Below, in pieces: positions 1,886 to 24,428 of a stretch of DNA of 24,428 bases. A model generated the notes under the pieces. It saw only the letters and a program-made list of their open reading frames with translations. It searched no databases and had not been told where the DNA came from. Origin of the DNA: a virus (taxonomy: Duplodnaviria > Caudoviricetes); IMG/VR virus record IMGVR_UViG_3300011335_000379, positions 1 through 24,428 of that record. One strand, written 5' to 3'. A program made the position numbers and the translations under genes. Numbering within the stretch: the first letter of the stretch is position 1; the number at the start of each line of letters is the position of its first letter.

Positions 1886-3463
1886 ATGAACGCACCGTTA
1901 TCACCCTCAGTAGTTCTTGAGCTCATCAAGAAAGAAAGGCAAAGGAGAACGGCTGAAGGTTGCTTGTATGACTTTGTCAAGCAGAGCTGGCATGTTGTAG
2001 AGCCGGGCATACCGTTTGTACCGTCGTGGCACATTCAAGAGATTTGCGAACACCTTGAGGCTATTTCTAGTGGCGACATCCGCCGGCTGCTTATCAACAT
2101 TCCGCCAAGGCACTCTAAGTCAACCATTGTGTCGGTCATGTGGCCGATGTGGGAATGGCTGACAACGCCGGAACAGAAGTTCTTGTGCGCTAGTTACGCC
2201 GGCAACTTGAGCATCCGCGACAACTTGAAGGCGCGGCGCTTGGTGCAGTCGCCTTGGTACCAAGAAAGGTGGGGTTGGTTGTTTGAATTGTCTGGCGACC
2301 AGAACGCCAAGCAGCGGTTCGAGAACAGCAAGACAGGTTACCGCATCGCCACATCACCCGGGGGTATGGCAACAGGAGAGGGGGGCTCTCGGTTAGTGCT
2401 TGATGACCCGCATGGGGCGCAGGATGCACAATCCGATGCCATGCGTGAGAGTACTCTCGAGTGGTTTGACATGGTTTGGTCAACGCGGCTGAACAACCCC
2501 AAGACCGACGCCATGGTTGTAGTGATGCAGCGACTACATGAGCGCGACATCAGTGGGCACATACTTGAGGACATTAAAGGTTGGGAGCACGTTTGCATCC
2601 CGGCCGAATGGGATGGCAAAGCACGTAAGACGGTGCTCGGTCCTTATGACCCACGTACCAAGAAGGGTGAACTCATCTGCCCTGAACGCTTCGGGCCGGT
2701 GGAGATTACTGCTCTCAAACAACTGCTCGGTTCATACGGCACGAGCGGCCAACTGCAGCAGGACCCTGTGCCAAGCACCGGCGGCTTGCTTAAGACATCT
2801 TTCTTCCAGCAGTGGCCGCACAATGAGCGGTTGCCGCAGTACGAGTACATACTGCAGAGTTACGACTGCGCGTTTACCGAAAAGACTTCTGGCGACCCAA
2901 CGGCATGCACTGTATGGGGTGTCTTCACCCACAAGAAAGAGCGACACTGCATGCTGCTTGATGCTTGGGACGAGCACTTGAGTTACCCGGACTTGAGGAC
3001 AAAAGCGGTCAAGGACTGGACGACTGAGTATGGAGGCGACAACAACAACGGTGCCGGTATGCCCACTCGTGCTCGACGGCCAGACAGGATTCTAGTTGAG
3101 GCGAAAGCCAGTGGGCAATCGCTGCTGCAGGACTTGCGTTTGGCAAAAGTGCCTGCGGTAGGTTATAATCCGGGAAATGCCGATAAAATCAGCCGTGCGC
3201 ACCAAGCCGCACCCACTTTGGAGCTCGGACTATTGTGGATACCAGAGTCAAAGCGCAACCCCGGACAGCCTGTCAGTTGGGCAGCGGCGTTCCTCAAGCA
3301 AGTGGCCAAGTTCCCACTGGCCGAGCATGACGACTATGTGGACACGTTCACGCAGGCCGTCATCTACCTCAAGAATGATGGCTGGTTTGAGCTGCCACAA
3401 GCCAAGGACGTTGATGAACCACGGCCAAAAAACCGAGACAAGGTGAACCCCTATGCCGCGTGA
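1886..3463 (+). CDS. terL: Terminase large subunit
   Basis: Walker A-like INIPPRHSKST, Walker B LVLDDPH, VVMQRLHERD coupling motif, RNase H-like nuclease residues (SYDCAF, DPTA, HDDYVD). Confidence 0.97.
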   Translation: MNAPLSPSVVLELIKKERQRRTAEGCLYDFVKQSWHVVEPGIPFVPSWHIQEICEHLEAISSGDIRRLLINIPPRHSKSTIVSVMWPMWEWLTTPEQKFLCASYAGNLSIRDNLKARRLVQSPWYQERWGWLFELSGDQNAKQRFENSKTGYRIATSPGGMATGEGGSRLVLDDPHGAQDAQSDAMRESTLEWFDMVWSTRLNNPKTDAMVVVMQRLHERDISGHILEDIKGWEHVCIPAEWDGKARKTVLGPYDPRTKKGELICPERFGPVEITALKQLLGSYGTSGQLQQDPVPSTGGLLKTSFFQQWPHNERLPQYEYILQSYDCAFTEKTSGDPTACTVWGVFTHKKERHCMLLDAWDEHLSYPDLRTKAVKDWTTEYGGDNNNGAGMPTRARRPDRILVEAKASGQSLLQDLRLAKVPAVGYNPGNADKISRAHQAAPTLELGLLWIPESKRNPGQPVSWAAAFLKQVAKFPLAEHDDYVDTFTQAVIYLKNDGWFELPQAKDVDEPRPKNRDKVNPYAA

Positions 3464-4553
3464 AGACAAAACAAAAGCAGCCTTTGGTATTTACCCAAAG
3501 CAACGGGCTAAAGCTAGTTCACCAGAGACTATTAAAGGGGTGAATGACCTGGTAAATTTGCTTGGAGACATAGTTCTACCTAAAGATGCCGTTGATGTTG
3601 GCTTAATGGCTTTACCTGTTGCTGGCAACATGCGCAAATTAGGGGCTGCTTTAATTGCAGGAGGAGCCACAACTGACTCTGAAGCCGGTGGTTTAAGCGC
3701 ATTGATGCGGTTGCTTTCAAAAGAAGCCCCTGCTCAAGCGCGTCAAATCAGAGAGGCGTTGGGTCGTGCATATACATCCAACGTTGAGCATTCTGTAGTT
3801 GGATCAGCCGATAAGGGTCCTGTAGGATCAATAGTTTCAGGAATATACGATTCGGTTGCTCCAAACCAACTTGACATTGCCCGGGCATTAAAGAGCAATG
3901 GATCTATTGCTGATTTTCATACACATCCAACTATTGGTCAACCAGCCTTTGATGTTTCACCGAGTTCATCTGACTTCAGATTTGCATCAAATGAATACTT
4001 TCCAGGTAAACAAGATAGAGAACTAAGAACAATCATTGCATCGCCAGCAGATCCAGGCTCTCGCTCACCGTCGGCTTACTCGTTCTTTGCAACTGATAAT
4101 CCTAGTAAAGTATTTGATAAACGCAAACTTGATGCTGCAGTTTTTGAACTACAAAGAGGGGGTAGCAAAGGGACTTTTAAGTCTGTTCTTGATGATCCGA
4201 GGTTTCGCGAATACTTTGACCAAGGCGGATCAATGGGTGAGCTTGCTGAAAATATAGCCCCTTTATCGCTGTTTGACTTGCGTAAAGCACAAGGAATGGG
4301 AAGGGGAGAAGTTGTTCTTAGTGGAAGACCGTTAAGTCAAAACCCTGAGTCGACAAACACAGAACTATTCAGAATGATGAACCCGAGTGCTGTTGAATTG
4401 TTAACCCGCAAGGGTTTTGCTGAGGGCGGTATGGTCTCATCAAACCACTTTGACCCAATTAGAATCAAACAGATCATTGCCGGCTTAGATGATGAGTATG
4501 ATCCCGAACGCATCCAGCAAATAGTTGCGCAACGTGAAAGTGCATATGCCTAA
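3453..4553 (+). CDS. Hypothetical protein with JAB/MPN-like metallopeptidase motif and C-terminal FAEGG motif
   Basis: E(HSVVG)...DFHTHP-x11-SSSD; overlaps both the terL stop and the portal start; central part visibly more AT-rich than its neighbours. Confidence 0.6.
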   Translation: MPREDKTKAAFGIYPKQRAKASSPETIKGVNDLVNLLGDIVLPKDAVDVGLMALPVAGNMRKLGAALIAGGATTDSEAGGLSALMRLLSKEAPAQARQIREALGRAYTSNVEHSVVGSADKGPVGSIVSGIYDSVAPNQLDIARALKSNGSIADFHTHPTIGQPAFDVSPSSSDFRFASNEYFPGKQDRELRTIIASPADPGSRSPSAYSFFATDNPSKVFDKRKLDAAVFELQRGGSKGTFKSVLDDPRFREYFDQGGSMGELAENIAPLSLFDLRKAQGMGRGEVVLSGRPLSQNPESTNTELFRMMNPSAVELLTRKGFAEGGMVSSNHFDPIRIKQIIAGLDDEYDPERIQQIVAQRESAYA

Positions 4554-7242: not shown

Positions 7243-7436
7243 ATATAGAGACCGTTTTATTGCACCGGCTTAAAGCCGCGCAAGCAAGTTTTGCGCTTGA
7301 GTCACTCAAGCGCCCCCAAAACCGCGATAGCTTTGAGTACGGCTATCGCGTGGGTGTCGTATCTGGTTATGACGCAGCGTTAGATGTACTTTTTACCATT
7401 TTGGAAGAGGAGAAAAACAGTGGCAATGACTTATGA
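7239..7436 (+). CDS. Hypothetical helical protein of the head cluster, 65 aa
   Basis: GTG start coupled to the upstream stop; FEYGYRVGVVSGY motif; fills the portal-GroES gap. Confidence 0.75.
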   Translation: MNIETVLLHRLKAAQASFALESLKRPQNRDSFEYGYRVGVVSGYDAALDVLFTILEEEKNSGNDL

Positions 7437-7827
7437 GGACGCACTAGCAGAGGCTTTTCCGGCTGCAGAAGCCGGCATTCAGCCTTTTGGGAGCCGTGTT
7501 CTGGTACAAATTCGTAGTCCCAAACAACGTACCGCTTCTGGCATTATTTTGGATGTAGGCTCCCGAGACACTGAAAAGTGGAACACCCAGGTAGCCAAAG
7601 TCATCTCAATTGGCCCTTTGGCGTTTAAGAACCGTAACACTATGGCCAGTTGGCCTGAAGGTTCTTGGTGCGAGGAAGGTGAGTATGTGCGAGTTGCCAA
7701 GTATGGTGGCGATAGGTGGGAAGTTCCCATGTCAAACGGCGAATCGGCGCTGTTTGTAATCTTTAACGACTTGGACATCATCGGGCGAGTTAACGTCGAT
7801 CCACTGTCCATTCGTGCATTCATCTGA
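7420..7827 (+). CDS. groES: GroES/Cpn10-like co-chaperonin
   Basis: IQPFGSRVLV, TASGIIL mobile loop, AKVISIGP, KYGG, NDLDIIGRV; RBS GAGGAG before GTG 7420 (alternative ATG 7426). Confidence 0.9.
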   Translation: MAMTYEDALAEAFPAAEAGIQPFGSRVLVQIRSPKQRTASGIILDVGSRDTEKWNTQVAKVISIGPLAFKNRNTMASWPEGSWCEEGEYVRVAKYGGDRWEVPMSNGESALFVIFNDLDIIGRVNVDPLSIRAFI

Positions 7828-12391: not shown

Positions 12392-13372
12392 ATGGCGTTT
12401 TCTGGCAACGTAAGCGGCACAACATTCAATGCGTTGAAGGTAGTTGACCATGCCTTTAGGCGTTGCCGTTTGCCTGCGCAAGCCATTACCGCCGAAATGC
12501 AAAGCTATGCACTAGAGTCGCTCTACTTGCAGTTGTCAGACATGGCAAACATCAAGGCTCCAAGTTGGTGTATTGAAAAACTCATCTTGCCCTTCTACGA
12601 AAACCAGGAGATTATTCCTCTCCCTGTCGGCACGGTAGAGGTGCTCAATGCCAACTACCGGGTCATTCAGCCGGTGACCGGCACTACGGTAACGGCCAGC
12701 ACTTCGTATACGGTAGATTTTGGCTCAGCCACGGTGGTGGACACGATTGGCATTGAATGGTCAGGCACCTCAGTCACCGTCACGTTCCAAGTCTCCACAA
12801 ATGGCACAACATGGGTCACAGTCGGTAGCTCGTCGGTGGCCGCCGTTGCTGGTGAGATTGTTTGGACAGACATCTCAGGAGCTCTTGCGTACCAGTACTT
12901 TAGGATTACCTCGGCTAGCACCATCCTTTATACGACCATTACGCTGGGCAACATGCCGCAAGAAATACCTTTTGGTGTCCTGAATAGGGATACCTACGTT
13001 GCGCAGTCAAACAAGGTTTTTCCAGGTAGGCCCAACAGCTATTGGTTTCAGCGAGACATTCCAGAGCCTGTGATGCATGTATGGCCAGCACCATTTGCTG
13101 GCGCTGAGCAAGCCCAACTCATTGTTTGGCGGCATCGCCACATCATGGATACTGAGACCCTGCAGCAAGACGTTGAGGTGCCACAGCGCTGGCTTGAAGC
13201 CATTGTCAACGGGCTAGCTGCCAAGATGGCCGCAGAGACGGCTCAAGTGGACATCAACTTGATTCCAATCCTTGAGCAGAAATATTTGGCGTCTCGTCAA
13301 ACAGCTTGGGACGGCGACAATGACGGCTCGCCAATCTTTATCCAGCCTGCAATTGGTGCATATACTCGATGA
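12392..13372 (+). CDS. Head-tail adaptor / tail tubular protein with an inserted beta-sandwich (discoidin/F5-8-like) domain
   Basis: Helical N-terminus (VVDHAFRRC...ALESL), GRPNSYWFQR, VWPAP, VPQRWLEAIVNGLA; central VTFQVSTNGTTWVTV...YQYFRI insert. Confidence 0.65.
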   Translation: MAFSGNVSGTTFNALKVVDHAFRRCRLPAQAITAEMQSYALESLYLQLSDMANIKAPSWCIEKLILPFYENQEIIPLPVGTVEVLNANYRVIQPVTGTTVTASTSYTVDFGSATVVDTIGIEWSGTSVTVTFQVSTNGTTWVTVGSSSVAAVAGEIVWTDISGALAYQYFRITSASTILYTTITLGNMPQEIPFGVLNRDTYVAQSNKVFPGRPNSYWFQRDIPEPVMHVWPAPFAGAEQAQLIVWRHRHIMDTETLQQDVEVPQRWLEAIVNGLAAKMAAETAQVDINLIPILEQKYLASRQTAWDGDNDGSPIFIQPAIGAYTR

Positions 13373-15841: not shown

Positions 15842-17050
15842 GTGAGCATCCGACAGCAAAACTTAGGCAGCATCATCAAGCCGGGGTTTAATCCGTTGGC
15901 TGCGGGTGCTGACCAGTACAAAGGCATCTGGACAATGCAACAGGTGAACGCCGCTGTAGCTGCGAATACTTGGCCTGTGCCGCCGCCTCCACGGAAGTTG
16001 TACGCTTGGGGCAATAACAGTAGTGGTCAGTTAGGTTTAGGTAACACAACAAATTATTCTTCCCCTAAACAAGTTGGCGCGTTAATTACTTGGTATGGTA
16101 TTTCAGCGGGAGATACTTTTGTAATTTCAACTAAGACTGATGGGACTTTGTGGGTTTGGGGGAGTAATGGTAATGGTAACTTAGGTTTAGGTAACACAAC
16201 AGATTACTCATCCCCTAAACAAGTGGGTGCGTTAACAACTTGGTCAAACCTTGCAACGGGTGCAGCGCACACTATTGCAGTAAAGACTGATGGGACTTTG
16301 TGGGGTTGGGGGAGTAATGGTAATGGTCAACTAGGTTTAGGCAACACAACTAGTTACTCATCCCCCAAACAAGTGGGCGCACTGACTTCTTGGCGCAATA
16401 TTGCTGATGGGTCTGGAAATAGCTACACCCTCGCCACTAAAACAGATGGTACGTTATGGTCTTGGGGGAATAACAGCTATGGACAGTTAGGCTTAGGTAA
16501 CCTTACGTATTACTCATCTCCCAAACAAGTGGGTGCATTAACTACTTGGTTAAAAGTATCATGCGGTAGGTATTTTTCCGCTTCTATAAAAACTGACGGT
16601 ACGCTTTGGACTTGGGGTGATAATGGTAATGGTCAGTTGGGTTTAGGCAATACCACATTTTATTCAAGCCCAAAACAAGTTGGTGCATTAACAAATTGGC
16701 TTACAATAACCGGCGGTAGATATTTTACAGTTGCAGTAAAAACTGACGGAACTTTATGGAGTTGGGGCAGGAATAATACTGGACAGTTGGGTTTGGGCAA
16801 TACTACATATTATTCATCACCAAAACAAATTGGCGCACTTACAACTTGGTTAACTTCTGTTGCTGGTTCTACTCATACTGGCGCAGTTAAAACTGATGGT
16901 TCGTTTTGGGTTTGGGGACGTAATCATGTTGGGCAATTAGGTTTAGGAAACCTCACTAACTACTCCAGCCCAAAACAAGTAGGAGCTTCTCTTACGTGGT
17001 CAACTCCAGCTATGACTAACGACTCAACTCTAGCTGTCTCATCAACATAG
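15842..17050 (+). CDS. RCC1/BLIP-II repeat 7-bladed beta-propeller protein (putative receptor-binding protein 1)
   Basis: Seven ~50-aa repeats KTDGTLWxWGxNxxGQLGLGNxTxYSSPKQVG; GTG start. Confidence 0.92.
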   Translation: MSIRQQNLGSIIKPGFNPLAAGADQYKGIWTMQQVNAAVAANTWPVPPPPRKLYAWGNNSSGQLGLGNTTNYSSPKQVGALITWYGISAGDTFVISTKTDGTLWVWGSNGNGNLGLGNTTDYSSPKQVGALTTWSNLATGAAHTIAVKTDGTLWGWGSNGNGQLGLGNTTSYSSPKQVGALTSWRNIADGSGNSYTLATKTDGTLWSWGNNSYGQLGLGNLTYYSSPKQVGALTTWLKVSCGRYFSASIKTDGTLWTWGDNGNGQLGLGNTTFYSSPKQVGALTNWLTITGGRYFTVAVKTDGTLWSWGRNNTGQLGLGNTTYYSSPKQIGALTTWLTSVAGSTHTGAVKTDGSFWVWGRNHVGQLGLGNLTNYSSPKQVGASLTWSTPAMTNDSTLAVSST

Positions 17051-17053
17051 ACC

Positions 17054-18823
17054 ATGAACAAAACACTTCACTTCCTCTCTGGCATCCCGCGCTCTGGTTC
17101 AACAGTCCTTGCTGCTATCCTCAACCAGAACCCGATGACTCACGTATCCACTACGTCTGGTCTGGTTCATGCGCTGGATGGCTTGGCAAATACGTGGCAT
17201 TCTGCCGGGTTGCTGAACGAGAATGATCCTGAGCGGAAAAAGTTAGCCCAGACGATGCGCGGTGCGATTGATGCGTTCTACGAGGACACAGAGGCTCCGG
17301 TCATCATTGACAAGTCCCGTGGCTGGCCTATCGCTCAGATCATGGCGGCTATGTCCCAAGTCCTCGGTCATCAGCCTAAGATCATTGCTACGGTGCGCTC
17401 AGTGCCAGATTGCGCTGCTAGTTTCATCCGTGTGGCAAAACCTAAAAACCTTGACGATTTCGTGTATTCCGGGCAACTTATGGATCACCTCAAGGCTGCT
17501 TACATCTCGCTCCAGAACGGCTACGCATACGCTCCTGAGAACTTCTTGTTCGTTGAGTACGAAGACCTGCTGGCTGACCCAAAAGCGCAACTAGCCCGTA
17601 TCCACGCCTTCCTTGAACTGCCTGATTTCTCCTACGACTTTGACAACATTGACGGTTCCACGGTAGCTGAGGATGACGAGAACTTGCACGGTCACGCAGG
17701 CATGCACGATGTCAAGCCCAAGCTTGAAGCACAGCACAAGCAAGACCCCAAAGACCTGCTCAAGTCCCACTACGGCAGTTTCTGCCAGCCTGAGTTCTGG
17801 CTGGACACCCCCCGCACCGCCCCGGAGCTTCACGCCCTAGACCTCCAACTGGCAGCGTCCACAACGGGTGACTTTGCTGAAGGCTGGCGCTTGGCCCAGC
17901 AACTTGAGGCTGAAGAGCCAAACAACCACCGTGCAGCCTACAACCGTGGCTGGTACTACTTGCGCCAAGGACAGATTCAAAAAGGCTACAGCCTGATGGA
18001 CAGGGGCCGTGTGGCCGGTGTCTTTGGCAACAAGCGCCCTGATGTGCCCACCCAGCAGTGGGACGGAAAAACCAAAGGCATCGTCCTGCTCAATCTGGAG
18101 GGTGGTCTGGGCGACCAGATTCACCAAGTGCGTTACGCCAAGCACATCTCCGCACGGGGCTGCAAGGTCATTGTGGCCTGCACAGGCTCACTCGCATCGT
18201 TGTTCGTTGATGTGGGGGGTGTGTCCTCAGTCATCCAGCACGAGGCCGTATTTGGCGTCTACCACGACTTCTGGGTGGCCGGTATGTCCGCTGTTGTGCC
18301 ACTTGGGTTTGAGTTGGCAGACATCTCTGGCGCTCCGTACCTGACCAAGCCAACCACCATCAAAGGCCGCAAGAAACGCATTGGCCTGCGTTGGCAAGGG
18401 CAGAGTCAGTTTGAGCATGAGCATCACAAGAAGTTTCCCTACGAGTTGATGTTCACCGCCGTCAAGGACGCAGACGCTGAGTTCATCAGCCTGCAACGGG
18501 ACGAAGGTGCAGACGCCTGCCCAGCTTGGGTCAAGCCCGTGCCGCTAAATAGCTGGGAAGACACCCGCGCTGCTGCTGCATCGTGCGACTTGGTGATTAG
18601 CTCTTGCACCAGCGTCAGCCACCTGTCAGCAGCTATGGGGGTTGAAACTTGGGTCATCACACCCGTCATGCCCTACTTCCTGTACGCGCTTGATGGTGAA
18701 GCTACACCCTACTACGACAGCATGAAGTTAATGCGCCAAGAAGTGTTTGGTGACTGGCAAGCCCCGTTTGACCGCATCAAAGACCGCTTGGGTGAGAAGC
18801 CCATGTTGAGGAGCGTTGCATGA
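17054..18823 (+). CDS. Sulfotransferase - TPR - GT-B (family 9-like) glycosyltransferase fusion
   Basis: 5'-PSB loop SGIPRSGSTVL, 3'-PB motif IIATVRSVPDCAASF and FVEYEDLLADP; TPR (EPNNHRAAYNRGWYYLRQGQ); EGGLGDQI, RIGLRWQG, CDLVISSCTSVSHLSAAMG. Confidence 0.88.
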   Translation: MNKTLHFLSGIPRSGSTVLAAILNQNPMTHVSTTSGLVHALDGLANTWHSAGLLNENDPERKKLAQTMRGAIDAFYEDTEAPVIIDKSRGWPIAQIMAAMSQVLGHQPKIIATVRSVPDCAASFIRVAKPKNLDDFVYSGQLMDHLKAAYISLQNGYAYAPENFLFVEYEDLLADPKAQLARIHAFLELPDFSYDFDNIDGSTVAEDDENLHGHAGMHDVKPKLEAQHKQDPKDLLKSHYGSFCQPEFWLDTPRTAPELHALDLQLAASTTGDFAEGWRLAQQLEAEEPNNHRAAYNRGWYYLRQGQIQKGYSLMDRGRVAGVFGNKRPDVPTQQWDGKTKGIVLLNLEGGLGDQIHQVRYAKHISARGCKVIVACTGSLASLFVDVGGVSSVIQHEAVFGVYHDFWVAGMSAVVPLGFELADISGAPYLTKPTTIKGRKKRIGLRWQGQSQFEHEHHKKFPYELMFTAVKDADAEFISLQRDEGADACPAWVKPVPLNSWEDTRAAAASCDLVISSCTSVSHLSAAMGVETWVITPVMPYFLYALDGEATPYYDSMKLMRQEVFGDWQAPFDRIKDRLGEKPMLRSVA

Positions 18824-20022
18824 GTTTTAGATACATTGCAGGACTGTTAGGAAAAGCACCTACCGTAGTTGCCCCTGTGGATGGCGAAGGCGGGTCTGCT
18901 AAGGGTATCTGGAGTACAGCCAGTCAAGCTAATCTGCAAGCATTGGGAACATGGCCTAAGCCTACATTAGATAAATACTTGTGGACTTGGGGTCGCAATA
19001 ACAACGGGCAGTTAGGGTTAAGCAATACTACCGACTACTCCAGCCCAAAACAAGTAGGCGCTCTAATTACTTGGTCTAAGATTGCCGGTGGCGGTAGTTT
19101 TACTATAGCCACCAAGACTGACGGAACACTTTGGTCATGGGGTCAAAACGTCCGTGGTCAACTAGGTTTAAATAATGCCACTTATTACTCTAGCCCCAAA
19201 CAAGTTGGAGCATTAACTACTTGGTTAAATATTGCTGCTGGGTATCAACATACCATGGCTACAAAAACAGATGGCACTCTTTGGTCTTGGGGGTATAACA
19301 ATTTTGGTCAGTTAGGGTTGGGCAACATTACAAATTATTCTAGCCCCATGCAGATTGGAGCCTTGACTACATGGGCAGCTATAGCAGCGGGATCATCTTT
19401 TAGTAGCGCCGTTAAAACTGACGGAACGTTATGGACGTGGGGTAGAAATTTTATTGGACAGTTAGGGCTTGGAAACACAACTAACTATTCAAGCCCAAAA
19501 CAAGTAGGTGCATTGACTACATGGTCTAAAATATCTATTAGATCAATATCTGTTATAGCCGTAAAAACAGACGGAACACTTTGGTCATGGGGTTCAGGTT
19601 CTAGCGGTTTGCTTGGTTTGGGTAACACAACAAACTACTCGTCTCCCATGCAAGTTGGTGCTTTGACTACATGGCTATCTACAGCATGTGGAAAATATCA
19701 CACTATTGCTACCAAAAATGACGGGACACTTTGGACATGGGGCAGCAGTGCATTTGGGCAACTGGGCCTTGGAAATACAACTAACTACTCCAGTCCTAAA
19801 CAAGTCGGTGCTTTAACTACGTGGCTTAATATTGCAGGTGGATACCGTTCTACCATTGCTACGCAAACAAACAAAACCCTTTGGACTTGGGGACAAAACA
19901 CATATGGTCAACTAGGCCAAGGAAACACCACTGATTATTCCAGTCCAAAACAAGTTGGCACATTAACTACGTGGCTAAAAGTTGCTGCTGGGTACTTCCA
20001 AACATTAGCCACCAAATCTTAA
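18820..20022 (+). CDS. RCC1/BLIP-II repeat 7-bladed beta-propeller protein (putative receptor-binding protein 2)
   Basis: Seven repeats paralogous to 15842-17050; ATGA overlap with the upstream gene. Confidence 0.92.
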   Translation: MSFRYIAGLLGKAPTVVAPVDGEGGSAKGIWSTASQANLQALGTWPKPTLDKYLWTWGRNNNGQLGLSNTTDYSSPKQVGALITWSKIAGGGSFTIATKTDGTLWSWGQNVRGQLGLNNATYYSSPKQVGALTTWLNIAAGYQHTMATKTDGTLWSWGYNNFGQLGLGNITNYSSPMQIGALTTWAAIAAGSSFSSAVKTDGTLWTWGRNFIGQLGLGNTTNYSSPKQVGALTTWSKISIRSISVIAVKTDGTLWSWGSGSSGLLGLGNTTNYSSPMQVGALTTWLSTACGKYHTIATKNDGTLWTWGSSAFGQLGLGNTTNYSSPKQVGALTTWLNIAGGYRSTIATQTNKTLWTWGQNTYGQLGQGNTTDYSSPKQVGTLTTWLKVAAGYFQTLATKS

Positions 20023-20048: not shown

Positions 20049-20435
20049 ATGGCACTTTTCGTACGCATCCAAAACAACGCAGTAACCGACTGCTGGGACA
20101 CCCCACCACCAGCGGGTCAAGACGGCTGGAAATCAGCCGTTGAGGTTCGTCCTTCAATCACTGCCCACCGTCAAGGCTACACAGCCCACACGTTTGACCT
20201 GTTCACTGACCCAGTGCAGATCGTGTACAACACCTACGACATCCCAGTTGCAGACCGCAAGGTTGGCATGAAGGCCAATGCCTCGTTCAGCTTCCAGCAA
20301 GTTGTCCAAGAACAGATGCGTGACCCGTCCAAGTACGACCCTGCTGCCGTTGCCGCTGCACAAGCTGCCATCGCTCCCAAGGTTGCTGCTATTGAGGCCG
20401 CTACAACGCACGACGAACTTGACGCGCTGATGTAA
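20049..20435 (+). CDS. Hypothetical protein, tail fibre assembly chaperone-like
   Basis: Follows the RBP gene; C-terminus AAIEAATTHDELDAL resembles tail fibre assembly protein ends; RBS AGGAG. Confidence 0.55.
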   Translation: MALFVRIQNNAVTDCWDTPPPAGQDGWKSAVEVRPSITAHRQGYTAHTFDLFTDPVQIVYNTYDIPVADRKVGMKANASFSFQQVVQEQMRDPSKYDPAAVAAAQAAIAPKVAAIEAATTHDELDALM

Positions 20436-21277
20436 TGAAAAAAATCCTGATCATGGGTCTGCCGGGTAGCGGCAAAACGATGCTTGCTACCGCACTGAAG
20501 AAGTACCTTGAGTGCAACTCGGATGTGAAGCATATGCCTGCTTACCGGGCATCTGAACACGTTCCTACGTCCTACAAGTGCAGCGTGGACTGGTTCAACG
20601 CTGATGACATCCGCAAGCGGTTCAATGATTGGGACTTCAGCAAAGAGGGCCGCATCCGTCAGTCCTTGCGTATGGCTGAGTTTGCCTTCAAGTCCACCGG
20701 CGACTTTGTAATCTGCGACTTTGTAGCTCCCTTGGTGGAGATGCGGAACAACTTCAAGGCCGACTGGACGATCTGGGTAGACACCATTGATCAGGGCAGG
20801 TTTGACGATACCAACAAAGCATTTATTCCACCAAAGGAATACGACTTCCGTGTCACTGAGCAAAACGCCGAGAAGTGGGCCGAGTTCATTGGTAACCATA
20901 TCTTGGATCAACGCCGTCGTCCTACCTTTGACTGGAAGAAGGAAACCGTGCAGATGCTTGGCCGCTGGCAACCGTGGCATCCGGGGCACAGAGCGTTGTT
21001 TGACCGGGCCATTACCAAAACGGGGCAAGTGGTCATTCAAATCCGCGACTGTCAAGGCTGGAACGGTTCCAACCCCTTTGCCGCAGAGCAGGTGAAAGAC
21101 CTGATCAAGCGTGACCTAGACCCCCTGTACCAAGGCCAGTACGAAATACAGCTTGTGCCCAATGTGGTGAACATCACCTACGGCAGGGATGTGGGATACA
21201 AGATTGAGCAGGAGGTGTTTGACGCTGCCACCCACGCTATCTCCGCCACTGAAATCAGAAAGAAGATGGGCGTATGA
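20435..21277 (+). CDS. Adenylylsulfate (APS) kinase-like domain fused to a HIGH-family nucleotidyltransferase domain
   Basis: P-loop GLPGSGKT, NADDIR, DFSKEGRIRQ, DFVAP, FIPP (CysC-like); C-terminal GRWQPWHPGH and ISATEIR. Confidence 0.85.
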   Translation: MKKILIMGLPGSGKTMLATALKKYLECNSDVKHMPAYRASEHVPTSYKCSVDWFNADDIRKRFNDWDFSKEGRIRQSLRMAEFAFKSTGDFVICDFVAPLVEMRNNFKADWTIWVDTIDQGRFDDTNKAFIPPKEYDFRVTEQNAEKWAEFIGNHILDQRRRPTFDWKKETVQMLGRWQPWHPGHRALFDRAITKTGQVVIQIRDCQGWNGSNPFAAEQVKDLIKRDLDPLYQGQYEIQLVPNVVNITYGRDVGYKIEQEVFDAATHAISATEIRKKMGV

Positions 21278-23918: not shown

Positions 23919-24428
23919 ATGGCATATGTGATGACCTACGATAGTTTGTTAGTAGACCTACGCCGATATTTAGAGCGCGGGTTTACTGAGGCTAGTGACC
24001 AGATTGTTTACGATCAACTGCCGAGGCTAGTAACGCTCGGAGAGCGTAGGATTTCCCGCGAGTTAAAAATCCAAGGGTTTATCAGGGCAATCACCACGCC
24101 GTTGTCCATAGGCGTGGCGGTCTACCTCAAGCCTGACCGCTGGCGTGACACGGTGTCAATGACCGTGGATGGTATCCCCATTTATGCAAGATCCTACGAA
24201 TATCTTCGCAACTATTGGCCGTTCGAGGCGACAACCGGCAATCCGGCGTTCTACGCTGACTACGACTATCAACACTGGCTGATCACGCCGGCACCGGCTG
24301 CAGCCAAAACGCTAGAGATCCTGTACGACGAGCAGCCTCGGTGTCTTGGTGACGATTTCCAGACCAGTTGGGTCACAGAGTACATTCCAGATGTGCTTCT
24401 GTATGCCGCCTTGCTTGAGGCCTCGCCT
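23919..24428 (+). CDS. Second head-tail adaptor / tail tubular protein; 3' truncated, absent from ORF track
   Basis: Open frame MAYVMTYDSLLVDLRRYLERG...ERRISRELK...TGNPAFYADY...LITPAP...PDVLLYAALLEASP to the window end; RBS GAGG. Confidence 0.75.
   Translation, partial: MAYVMTYDSLLVDLRRYLERGFTEASDQIVYDQLPRLVTLGERRISRELKIQGFIRAITTPLSIGVAVYLKPDRWRDTVSMTVDGIPIYARSYEYLRNYWPFEATTGNPAFYADYDYQHWLITPAPAAAKTLEILYDEQPRCLGDDFQTSWVTEYIPDVLLYAALLEASP

Follow-up and report, generated by a model that had tools for sequence, protein, structure and literature searches.

A predicted minimal PAPS synthase in a phage genome, with a putative ATP sulfurylase domain outside the Sat family

We analyzed a stretch of 24,428 nucleotides of viral DNA (hereafter the window) and focused on a 280-aa ORF that joins an APS-kinase-like domain to a small nucleotidyltransferase of the HIGH superfamily, which we call MINI. 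We propose that this fusion is a bifunctional PAPS synthase of minimal size, in which a non-orthologous ATP sulfurylase is joined to the kinase, and put the probability of this reading at about 75%. The protein has two domains, each with a recognizable fold and conserved motifs, and MINI is repeatedly linked to genes that use APS. A PAPS synthase had been suggested in the preliminary description of this DNA, and comparative genomics now supports it: MINI is found in cysH-cysI, aprMBA, CysC-fusion, sulfotransferase, and nod settings, the activity itself being predicted. The phage locus, a third conserved motif (YGRDVGY), and a shortened kinase lid go beyond that description. The features of the window discussed below are the following.

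15842..17050, plus strand: RCC1-repeat propeller protein, possible acceptor
17054..18823, plus strand: 589-aa sulfotransferase-TPR protein (Sulfotransfer_3, 60.1 bits, residues 7-190)
18820..20022, plus strand: second RCC1-repeat propeller protein, possible acceptor
20049..20435, plus strand: 128-aa protein with no function assigned, its stop overlapping the start of the fusion gene
20435..21277, plus strand: fusion ORF, 280 aa, predicted minimal PAPS synthase (APS-kinase-like domain and MINI nucleotidyltransferase)
20435..20917, plus strand: kinase domain, residues 1-161, with Walker A, D57, R60, F68, and R73 and a shortened lid
20927..21277, plus strand: MINI, residues 165-280, nucleotidyltransferase of the HIGH superfamily and predicted non-orthologous ATP sulfurylase (evidence: likeness to a SAR11 protein before aprM, fold, and hhalign)
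20960..20989, plus strand: GRWQPWHPGH, NadM-type HxGH motif, residues 176-185, with G176, R177, Q179, H182, and H185 in 57/58 sequences
21179..21199, plus strand: YGRDVGY, residues 249-255, resembling the GRD loop of Sat (a motif likeness; hhalign did not pair the loops)
21239..21259, plus strand: ISATEIR, C-terminal nucleotide-binding motif, residues 269-275, R275 in 58/58 sequences

The window is from a phage, since it encodes terminase, portal, capsid, RCC1-repeat proteins, and lysozyme, and the fusion lies in the tail region. The ORF reported to carry GRWQPWHPGH and ISATEIR is real, with both motifs at the residues listed above, and its start ATG overlaps the stop of the preceding gene as TAATG. 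The cluster of the 128-aa protein encoded by this preceding gene recurs in 29 of 85 loci. The fusion matches phrog_10255 of PHROG with 151 bits, and its AlphaFold model has a mean pLDDT of 93.6 and a pTM of 0.72. The sulfotransferase said to be nearby is indeed there: its gene lies 1.6 kb upstream of the fusion, flanked by the two RCC1-repeat genes, and the 589-aa protein is likely the consumer of PAPS. The C-terminal part of this protein has no assigned function and is called glycosyltransferase-like from a motif; a glycosyltransferase identity was rejected, as this part has weak TPR matches only in Pfam and zero sequence matches in PDB. The two RCC1-repeat genes have a GC content of about 0.43, against about 0.54 in their neighbours.

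The N-terminal domain was described as carrying CysC-type motifs. It matches Pfam APS_kinase (PF01583) with 31.9 bits for a cut-off of 21.1, and in a fold search of 48,161 chains APS kinases take the first five places (Z 14.6-16.8, the top one with an rmsd of 1.9 over 128 residues), followed by gluconate kinase (13.8). The Walker A motif is GLPGSGKT (residues 8-15), and G8, G13, K14, R60, and F68 are kept in 58 of 58 sequences, down to 36% identity. The domain resembles CysC in fold, Walker A, the conserved Asp/Arg/Phe/Arg, and a Pfam score over the cut-off, whereas it misses the cut-off of the CysC equivalog model TIGR00455 (25.2 vs 138.7 bits). Two further differences count against the PAPS-synthase reading. 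Aligned with canonical CysC, the lid lacks about 19 residues, and the first position of the DGD motif is Asn in 44/58 sequences and Asp in 11/58 (thus mostly NAD for DGD), the second Asp being retained in 55/58. In the human APS kinase, the D87/D89 double mutant is inactive, according to the accessible part of PMC11697783. Elsewhere in the family, the partner of the trimmed kinase is a domain whose N-terminal motifs look like those of sulfotransferases, although Pfam does not call it (P0181, P0192, and P0203).

MINI has conserved motifs too. Residues G176, R177, Q179, H182, and H185 are each found in 57 of 58 sequences, and G250, R251, G254, and R275 in all 58, while D252 is found in 48 and is Gly in the SAR11 forms. 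Sat motifs include QXRN, HXXH, and the VGRDHAG loop, as given in the available part of PMC6607087. The HXXH motif is present in MINI (H182 and H185, 57/58), whereas the phosphosulfate-binding QXRN was not found in the alignment of 58 sequences, where GR[WFY]QP occupies its position in 54-57 of them. The ATP-sulfurylase models of Pfam (PF01747) and NCBIfam (TIGR00339) gave zero matches to the window protein, and PF01747 was matched weakly by 7 of 28 family members (best E 0.011). The best NCBIfam matches of MINI are NadM-type and below their cut-offs (NF002243, 31.6 vs 127 bits; TIGR01527, 30.8 vs 181.2 bits). In hhalign, MINI paired with phage NadM at 97% over 60 columns, against 34% over 22 columns with the Sat alignment, where the GRD loops were not aligned. 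In the predicted structure, which had been proposed as a check, residues 168-280 match PPAT and NadM folds (Z about 10, rmsd 2.7-3.2 over 107-110 residues); for these residues, no Sat catalytic domain was found among the 50 fold matches listed. The full-length search was dominated by the kinase, and its row for 1x6v (rmsd 20.4) is uninformative on domain arrangement. Residues 242-263 have no sheet partner in the monomer model and may pair across a dimer.

Models and profiles thus agree with the earlier view that the C-terminal domain is closer to NadM than to Sat. The same profile comparison argues against the accompanying claim of a stripped-down Sat, and membership of MINI in the Sat family is ruled out by Pfam, NCBIfam, and hhalign. 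Judged from its sequence, MINI would have been recruited separately, with a NadM-like scaffold as its origin, rather than being a trimmed Sat. What it shares with Sat (PF01747, TIGR00339) is HxxH, a C-terminal S-x-T-x-x-R, and the same operon slots, and its YGRDVGY may correspond to the GRD loop. Sat is however about 340 aa long, against about 115 for MINI, which lacks QXRN and passes the cut-off of no model, and the spacings differ, with 86-93 residues from HxxH to GRD in Sat vs 68 in MINI and 62-64 from GRD to the C-terminal motif vs 20. With NadM (2qjt, 1f9a, 1ej2), MINI shares GR-x-QP-x-H-x-GH, the first 60-70 residues, and the fold (Z about 10), but it scores far under the cut-offs of the models, its second half is smaller by about 40 residues, and it has a GRD/GRG loop; neither a Nudix fusion nor a Nampt neighbour was found for it. 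Sequence by itself would suggest a NadM; the argument for sulfate comes from the gene neighbourhoods.

The family comprises at least 7,728 clusters, cultured phages included (7,728 of the 8,000 scored candidates pass an E-value of 1e-10). This number, together with motifs that are nearly invariant in 58 sequences down to 36% identity, indicates that the ORF family is not due to chance. Among the 15 matching records of cultured phages, 12 have the complete fusion, under the name 'kinase' or as a hypothetical protein, and two Ralstonia phages match the kinase part only. In Ralstonia phage RSL1 (L084:6995-14229), the kinase-only form is clustered with annotated glycosyltransferases, a sulfotransferase, and a gene of the thymidylate-synthase family, a cluster that may point to DNA modification.

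For cellular genomes, the scan covered 6 of the 64 parts of the set, and we retained the best 80 loci. There, SAR11, SAR86, and further marine bacteria encode MINI by a gene of its own, and at least 57 of the 80 loci also hold a separate kinase gene (the overlap filter missed one, L161). One locus, L134 ('Synechococcus'), was dropped as cellular context because its neighbours look like T4-type phage genes. In a second scan of phages, the kinase accompanies MINI in 75 of 80 loci (28 fused, 47 separate). The reverse order also exists: MINI is N-terminal to a canonical CysC in P0216 (233.6 bits, cut-off 138.7) and precedes a trimmed kinase in P0194. MINI-CysC fusions occur in 37 of the 80 metagenome loci listed, with a sulfotransferase domain in view in 7. 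Altogether, MINI and the kinase occur in four arrangements, and the APS kinase is of two kinds. Since the two domains can also be split or reversed, the kinase-first order loses the meaning that had been given to it as a likeness to animal PAPSS. DUF2061 recurs as a neighbour or fusion partner of the kinase, MINI, or CysN (L101:7285-7548, L044:8737-9036, P0142, P0195, L304:8758-10344) and in 15/80 and 8/80 phage loci; it may be an accessory of the sulfate pathway.

A first context is that of assimilation. In one alphaproteobacterial family, nine genomes carry cysI-cysH-DUF2061-kinase-MINI (L101 and 8/8 further loci), the order in L101 being chelatase, uroporphyrinogen methyltransferase, sulfite reductase hemoprotein, cysH, DUF2061, kinase, and MINI. 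MINI occurs in 10 of the 11 genomes of this family. The family is streamlined (loci L101:3267-8401 and L293-L300), and its CysH carries CC and CxxC cysteines, which we take to be those of the Fe-S APS-reductase type. We searched six of the nine genomes for other sources of APS; these are incomplete (0.9-1.2 Mb) and from one related family. Sat (PF01747) gave zero matches in 6/6. No CysD was found in G009, and in the other five genomes the sole PF01507 match over the cut-off is the operon's own cysH. A cysH-cysI operon requires APS, no other source was found in these six genomes, and MINI sits where cysDN or sat would be expected.

A second context is sulfite oxidation. Among the best 80 genome loci, MINI is directly before aprM-aprB-aprA in four (L157-L160) and within a few genes of the apr cluster in three more (L116, L146, L155), and cysQ is near MINI in 12. 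The MINI of the window is 53% identical to the protein directly before aprM in L158. In 201 Pelagibacterales genomes, we found MINI in 164, aprA in 167, and Sat in 8. MINI and aprA occur together in 155 genomes, MINI only in 9, aprA only in 12, and neither in 25, which gives an odds ratio of 36 (p 1e-15), a statistic that ignores relatedness. In this set, which includes one unpublished genome (G130), negatives were obtained by subtraction from lists and Sat was the sole sulfurylase profiled. Among the 167 genomes with aprA, 160 are without Sat, and 149 of these have MINI; six of the eight Sat-bearing genomes also carry MINI. The canonical Sat of these eight genomes (L205-L212) is surrounded by genes that look like those for surface polysaccharides and is in some cases accompanied by a PRK05541-type CysC. 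At the L157-L160 loci, a CADD-family gene stands where L197, L202, and L203 have pabB/pabA/pabC-like genes; the N-terminal sequences, on which these assignments are based, suggest a swap of p-aminobenzoate routes.

These counts can be set beside published ones. The portions of the papers available to us report AprBA in P. ubique together with the absence of sat and cysDN (PMC5069961), list one and the same set of five strains, out of seven, for cysC and for aprA (table of PMC5069961), and give sat in one of seven SAR11 strains (PMC3448164). A recent preprint (10.64898/2026.04.03.716430) lists aprA-aprB as conserved, and the word 'sulfurylase' was not found in the part of its text that was accessible.

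The association of MINI with apr genes has exceptions. MINI is not always beside aprM: in SAR11 genomes G010, G042, and G047 a 132-aa HIT-family gene takes this slot (L197:6707-7102, L202:7529-7924, L203:9026-9421), which counts against the PAPS-synthase reading. HIT proteins can break down APS, and the HIT gene before aprM is a candidate for a second route of APS disposal. Strict mutual exclusion of MINI and Sat or CysD is refuted by their coexistence in several genomes, i.e., Sat with MINI in G015 and G031, CysD in G021, and a CysD-length match in G460 and G589. Of five incomplete genomes whose MINI lies at the apr locus, two gave a kinase partner in a search with one query. Most SAR11 kinase-MINI pairs have organosulfur and C1 genes around them but no sulfotransferase, and in the SAR86 genomes that we tested the pair occurs without aprA; both count against the proposed reading, as no use of PAPS is apparent there.

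These exceptions feed the alternative that survives best, although we consider it unlikely. MINI might handle APS otherwise, working in the ATP-forming direction only, using phosphate or water instead of PPi, or binding APS or PAPS, and the fusion would then be an APS kinase acting on host APS. The alternation of MINI with the HIT gene before aprM, its frequent coexistence with Sat or CysD, and the two Ralstonia phages with the kinase part alone would all fit. However, the cysH-cysI operon needs APS to be made, and no other source was found in the six genomes tested. The HxGH and arginine motifs are moreover 98-100% conserved, and the apr cluster of G028 is flanked by MINI as well as by the HIT orthologue. 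We therefore favour the synthesis of APS by MINI.

A third context is given by sulfotransferases. They are encoded in 39 of the 80 close phage loci (33 of the 52 with at least 5 kb upstream) and in 29 of the 80 loci of the second phage scan, both being raw counts, uncorrected for a background rate. About half of the phage loci are without a detected sulfotransferase, which counts against the PAPS-synthase reading. Phage Sano has a weak sulfotransferase-like gene two genes upstream (20.7 bits, cut-off 22.8), and no annotated sulfotransferase was found nearby in phage DLP6. In haloarchaeal plasmids, ten records match MINI, nine of them annotated as cysC, and the three loci opened (L301:7027-10123, L302, L303) all have a sulfotransferase, a CysC-MINI fusion with canonical CysC first, and YqcI/YcgG. 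This three-gene unit may make a sulfated small molecule.

In alphaproteobacteria, MINI was found in 8 of the 401 genomes sampled (one of them, G457, unpublished). The five that we opened have no Sat, a CysD-length match in two, and a sulfotransferase directly after the fusion in one. On a plasmid of Microvirga lotononidis, nodC, nodI, and nodJ are followed by a sulfotransferase, a gap, kinase-MINI, cysD, and cysN. This cysN ends in a DUF2061-like tail, without a kinase domain. The MINI is degraded, with HESH, GLD, and SPTAVQ for HxGH, GRD, and SATxxR, and lacks R251, R275, and the first Gly of the HxGH loop; the motifs of the kinase are all in place. This single example fits a MINI made redundant by CysDN, with the kinase supplying the missing domain.

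It is very unlikely that MINI activates a sugar, a polyol phosphate, or another oxyanion for adjoining glycosyltransferases, in an HldE- or TagD-like succession of kinase and NDP-transfer. Phage loci do commonly hold glycosyltransferases, epimerases, and separate cytidylyltransferases, and databases chiefly call MINI a 'cytidyltransferase', NMNAT, PPAT, or hypothetical protein (an automatic source gives 'ATP sulfurylase' for one of 120 proteins listed), with 'cytidyltransferase' clusters only in the ESM Atlas. The label 'cytidyltransferase' traces however to a weak superfamily match, of 19.6 bits for a cut-off of 21, and such a role leaves the cysH-cysI, aprMBA, cysQ, CysC-fusion, and nod contexts unexplained.

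The least probable alternative, which we regard as remote, is NadR-like salvage, with nicotinamide riboside as the substrate of the kinase and NMN, adenylylated to NAD, as that of MINI. NadM enzymes are the best sequence and profile matches of MINI, a NADAR gene lies directly upstream in phage Sano (also a point against the PAPS-synthase reading), and L021 has a NUDIX gene on the opposite strand. But Nampt, NadM-type Nudix, and NadD were found in 0 of 277 loci (80+80+37, then 80 more; tblastn with one query per family, which can miss distant homologues), so that the neighbours lend an NMNAT role no support, whereas two annotated phage NadM-Nudix control genes adjoin Nampt. In addition, MINI is about 40 residues shorter than phage NadM from HxGH to the C-terminal motif, the kinase fold is nearest to APS kinases, and Pelagibacter HIMB1495 encodes a NadD and a CoaD that score over the cut-off, hence does not need MINI for those steps. 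The best 25 of the 29 NCBIfam matches at E up to 1 include no NadR model.

For the PAPS synthase that we propose, the predicted reactions are as follows. MINI would join sulfate to ATP (ATP + sulfate -> APS + PPi), the N-terminal kinase would phosphorylate APS to PAPS, and the attachment of the kinase would pull the unfavourable first step forward. By analogy with other HIGH enzymes, ATP and PPi are presumably bound by HxGH, R251, and ISAT-x-x-R, with R177, Q179, and R204 as candidate sulfate ligands replacing the QXRN of Sat. In the phage, PAPS would feed its own sulfotransferase, and our favoured guess for the acceptor is a sugar on the flanking RCC1-repeat proteins. In cells, MINI would serve sulfate assimilation in cysH-cysI operons, and beside AprBA it would run in reverse, making ATP and sulfate out of the APS that sulfite oxidation yields.

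The closest known systems are human PAPSS1/2 (1x6v) and the Aquifex Sat-CysC (2gks), which also combine the APS-kinase fold with a HIGH-superfamily adenylyltransferase and have the same overall reaction as predicted here; PAPSS moreover has the kinase first, as in the phage fusion. Their PDB chains are 546-630 aa long, against 280 aa for the fusion, whose adenylyltransferase is outside the Sat family and whose lid is shortened, in a family where the order is variable and split forms are common. CysDN/NodPQ have the same predicted product and the same slot in cys and nod clusters, but MINI has no GTPase subunit, belongs to another fold family, and decays beside CysDN in Microvirga. Genome annotation looks for two families of ATP sulfurylases, Sat and CysDN. 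Our literature search, which left subscription journals mostly outside, found no description of MINI as an ATP sulfurylase, and the accessible part of PMC13584214, on viral cysC auxiliary genes, does not mention a partner sulfurylase domain. The reaction and the superfamily, which is that of Sat, are known; new would be MINI as a separate family of ATP sulfurylases.

We think it reasonably probable that MINI is a third such family, of about 115 residues on a NadM-like scaffold, that it is the 'missing Sat' of SAR11, by which most Pelagibacterales recover ATP from the APS made by AprBA in organosulfur breakdown, and that it completes hidden assimilation operons and gives thousands of phage lineages a one-gene supply of PAPS. 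If this is true, a gene of 124 residues present in 164 of 201 Pelagibacterales closes the sulfurylase gap of SAR11, and an ATP-yielding step becomes possible in organosulfur breakdown by the ocean's most abundant bacteria. Sulfur-pathway calls would change for genomes scored as lacking sulfate activation, and many viral 'cysC' genes would be a private PAPS supply for phage sulfotransferases rather than a boost to the sulfate reduction of the host.

Other genes of the window were also recorded. A 366-aa gene with an HTHP motif and zero family matches lies in the terminase-portal interval (3453-4553), and a GroES homologue is found at 7384-7827. There are two SU10-adaptor-like genes, at 12392-13372 and 23919-24428, the latter placed after the lysis genes.
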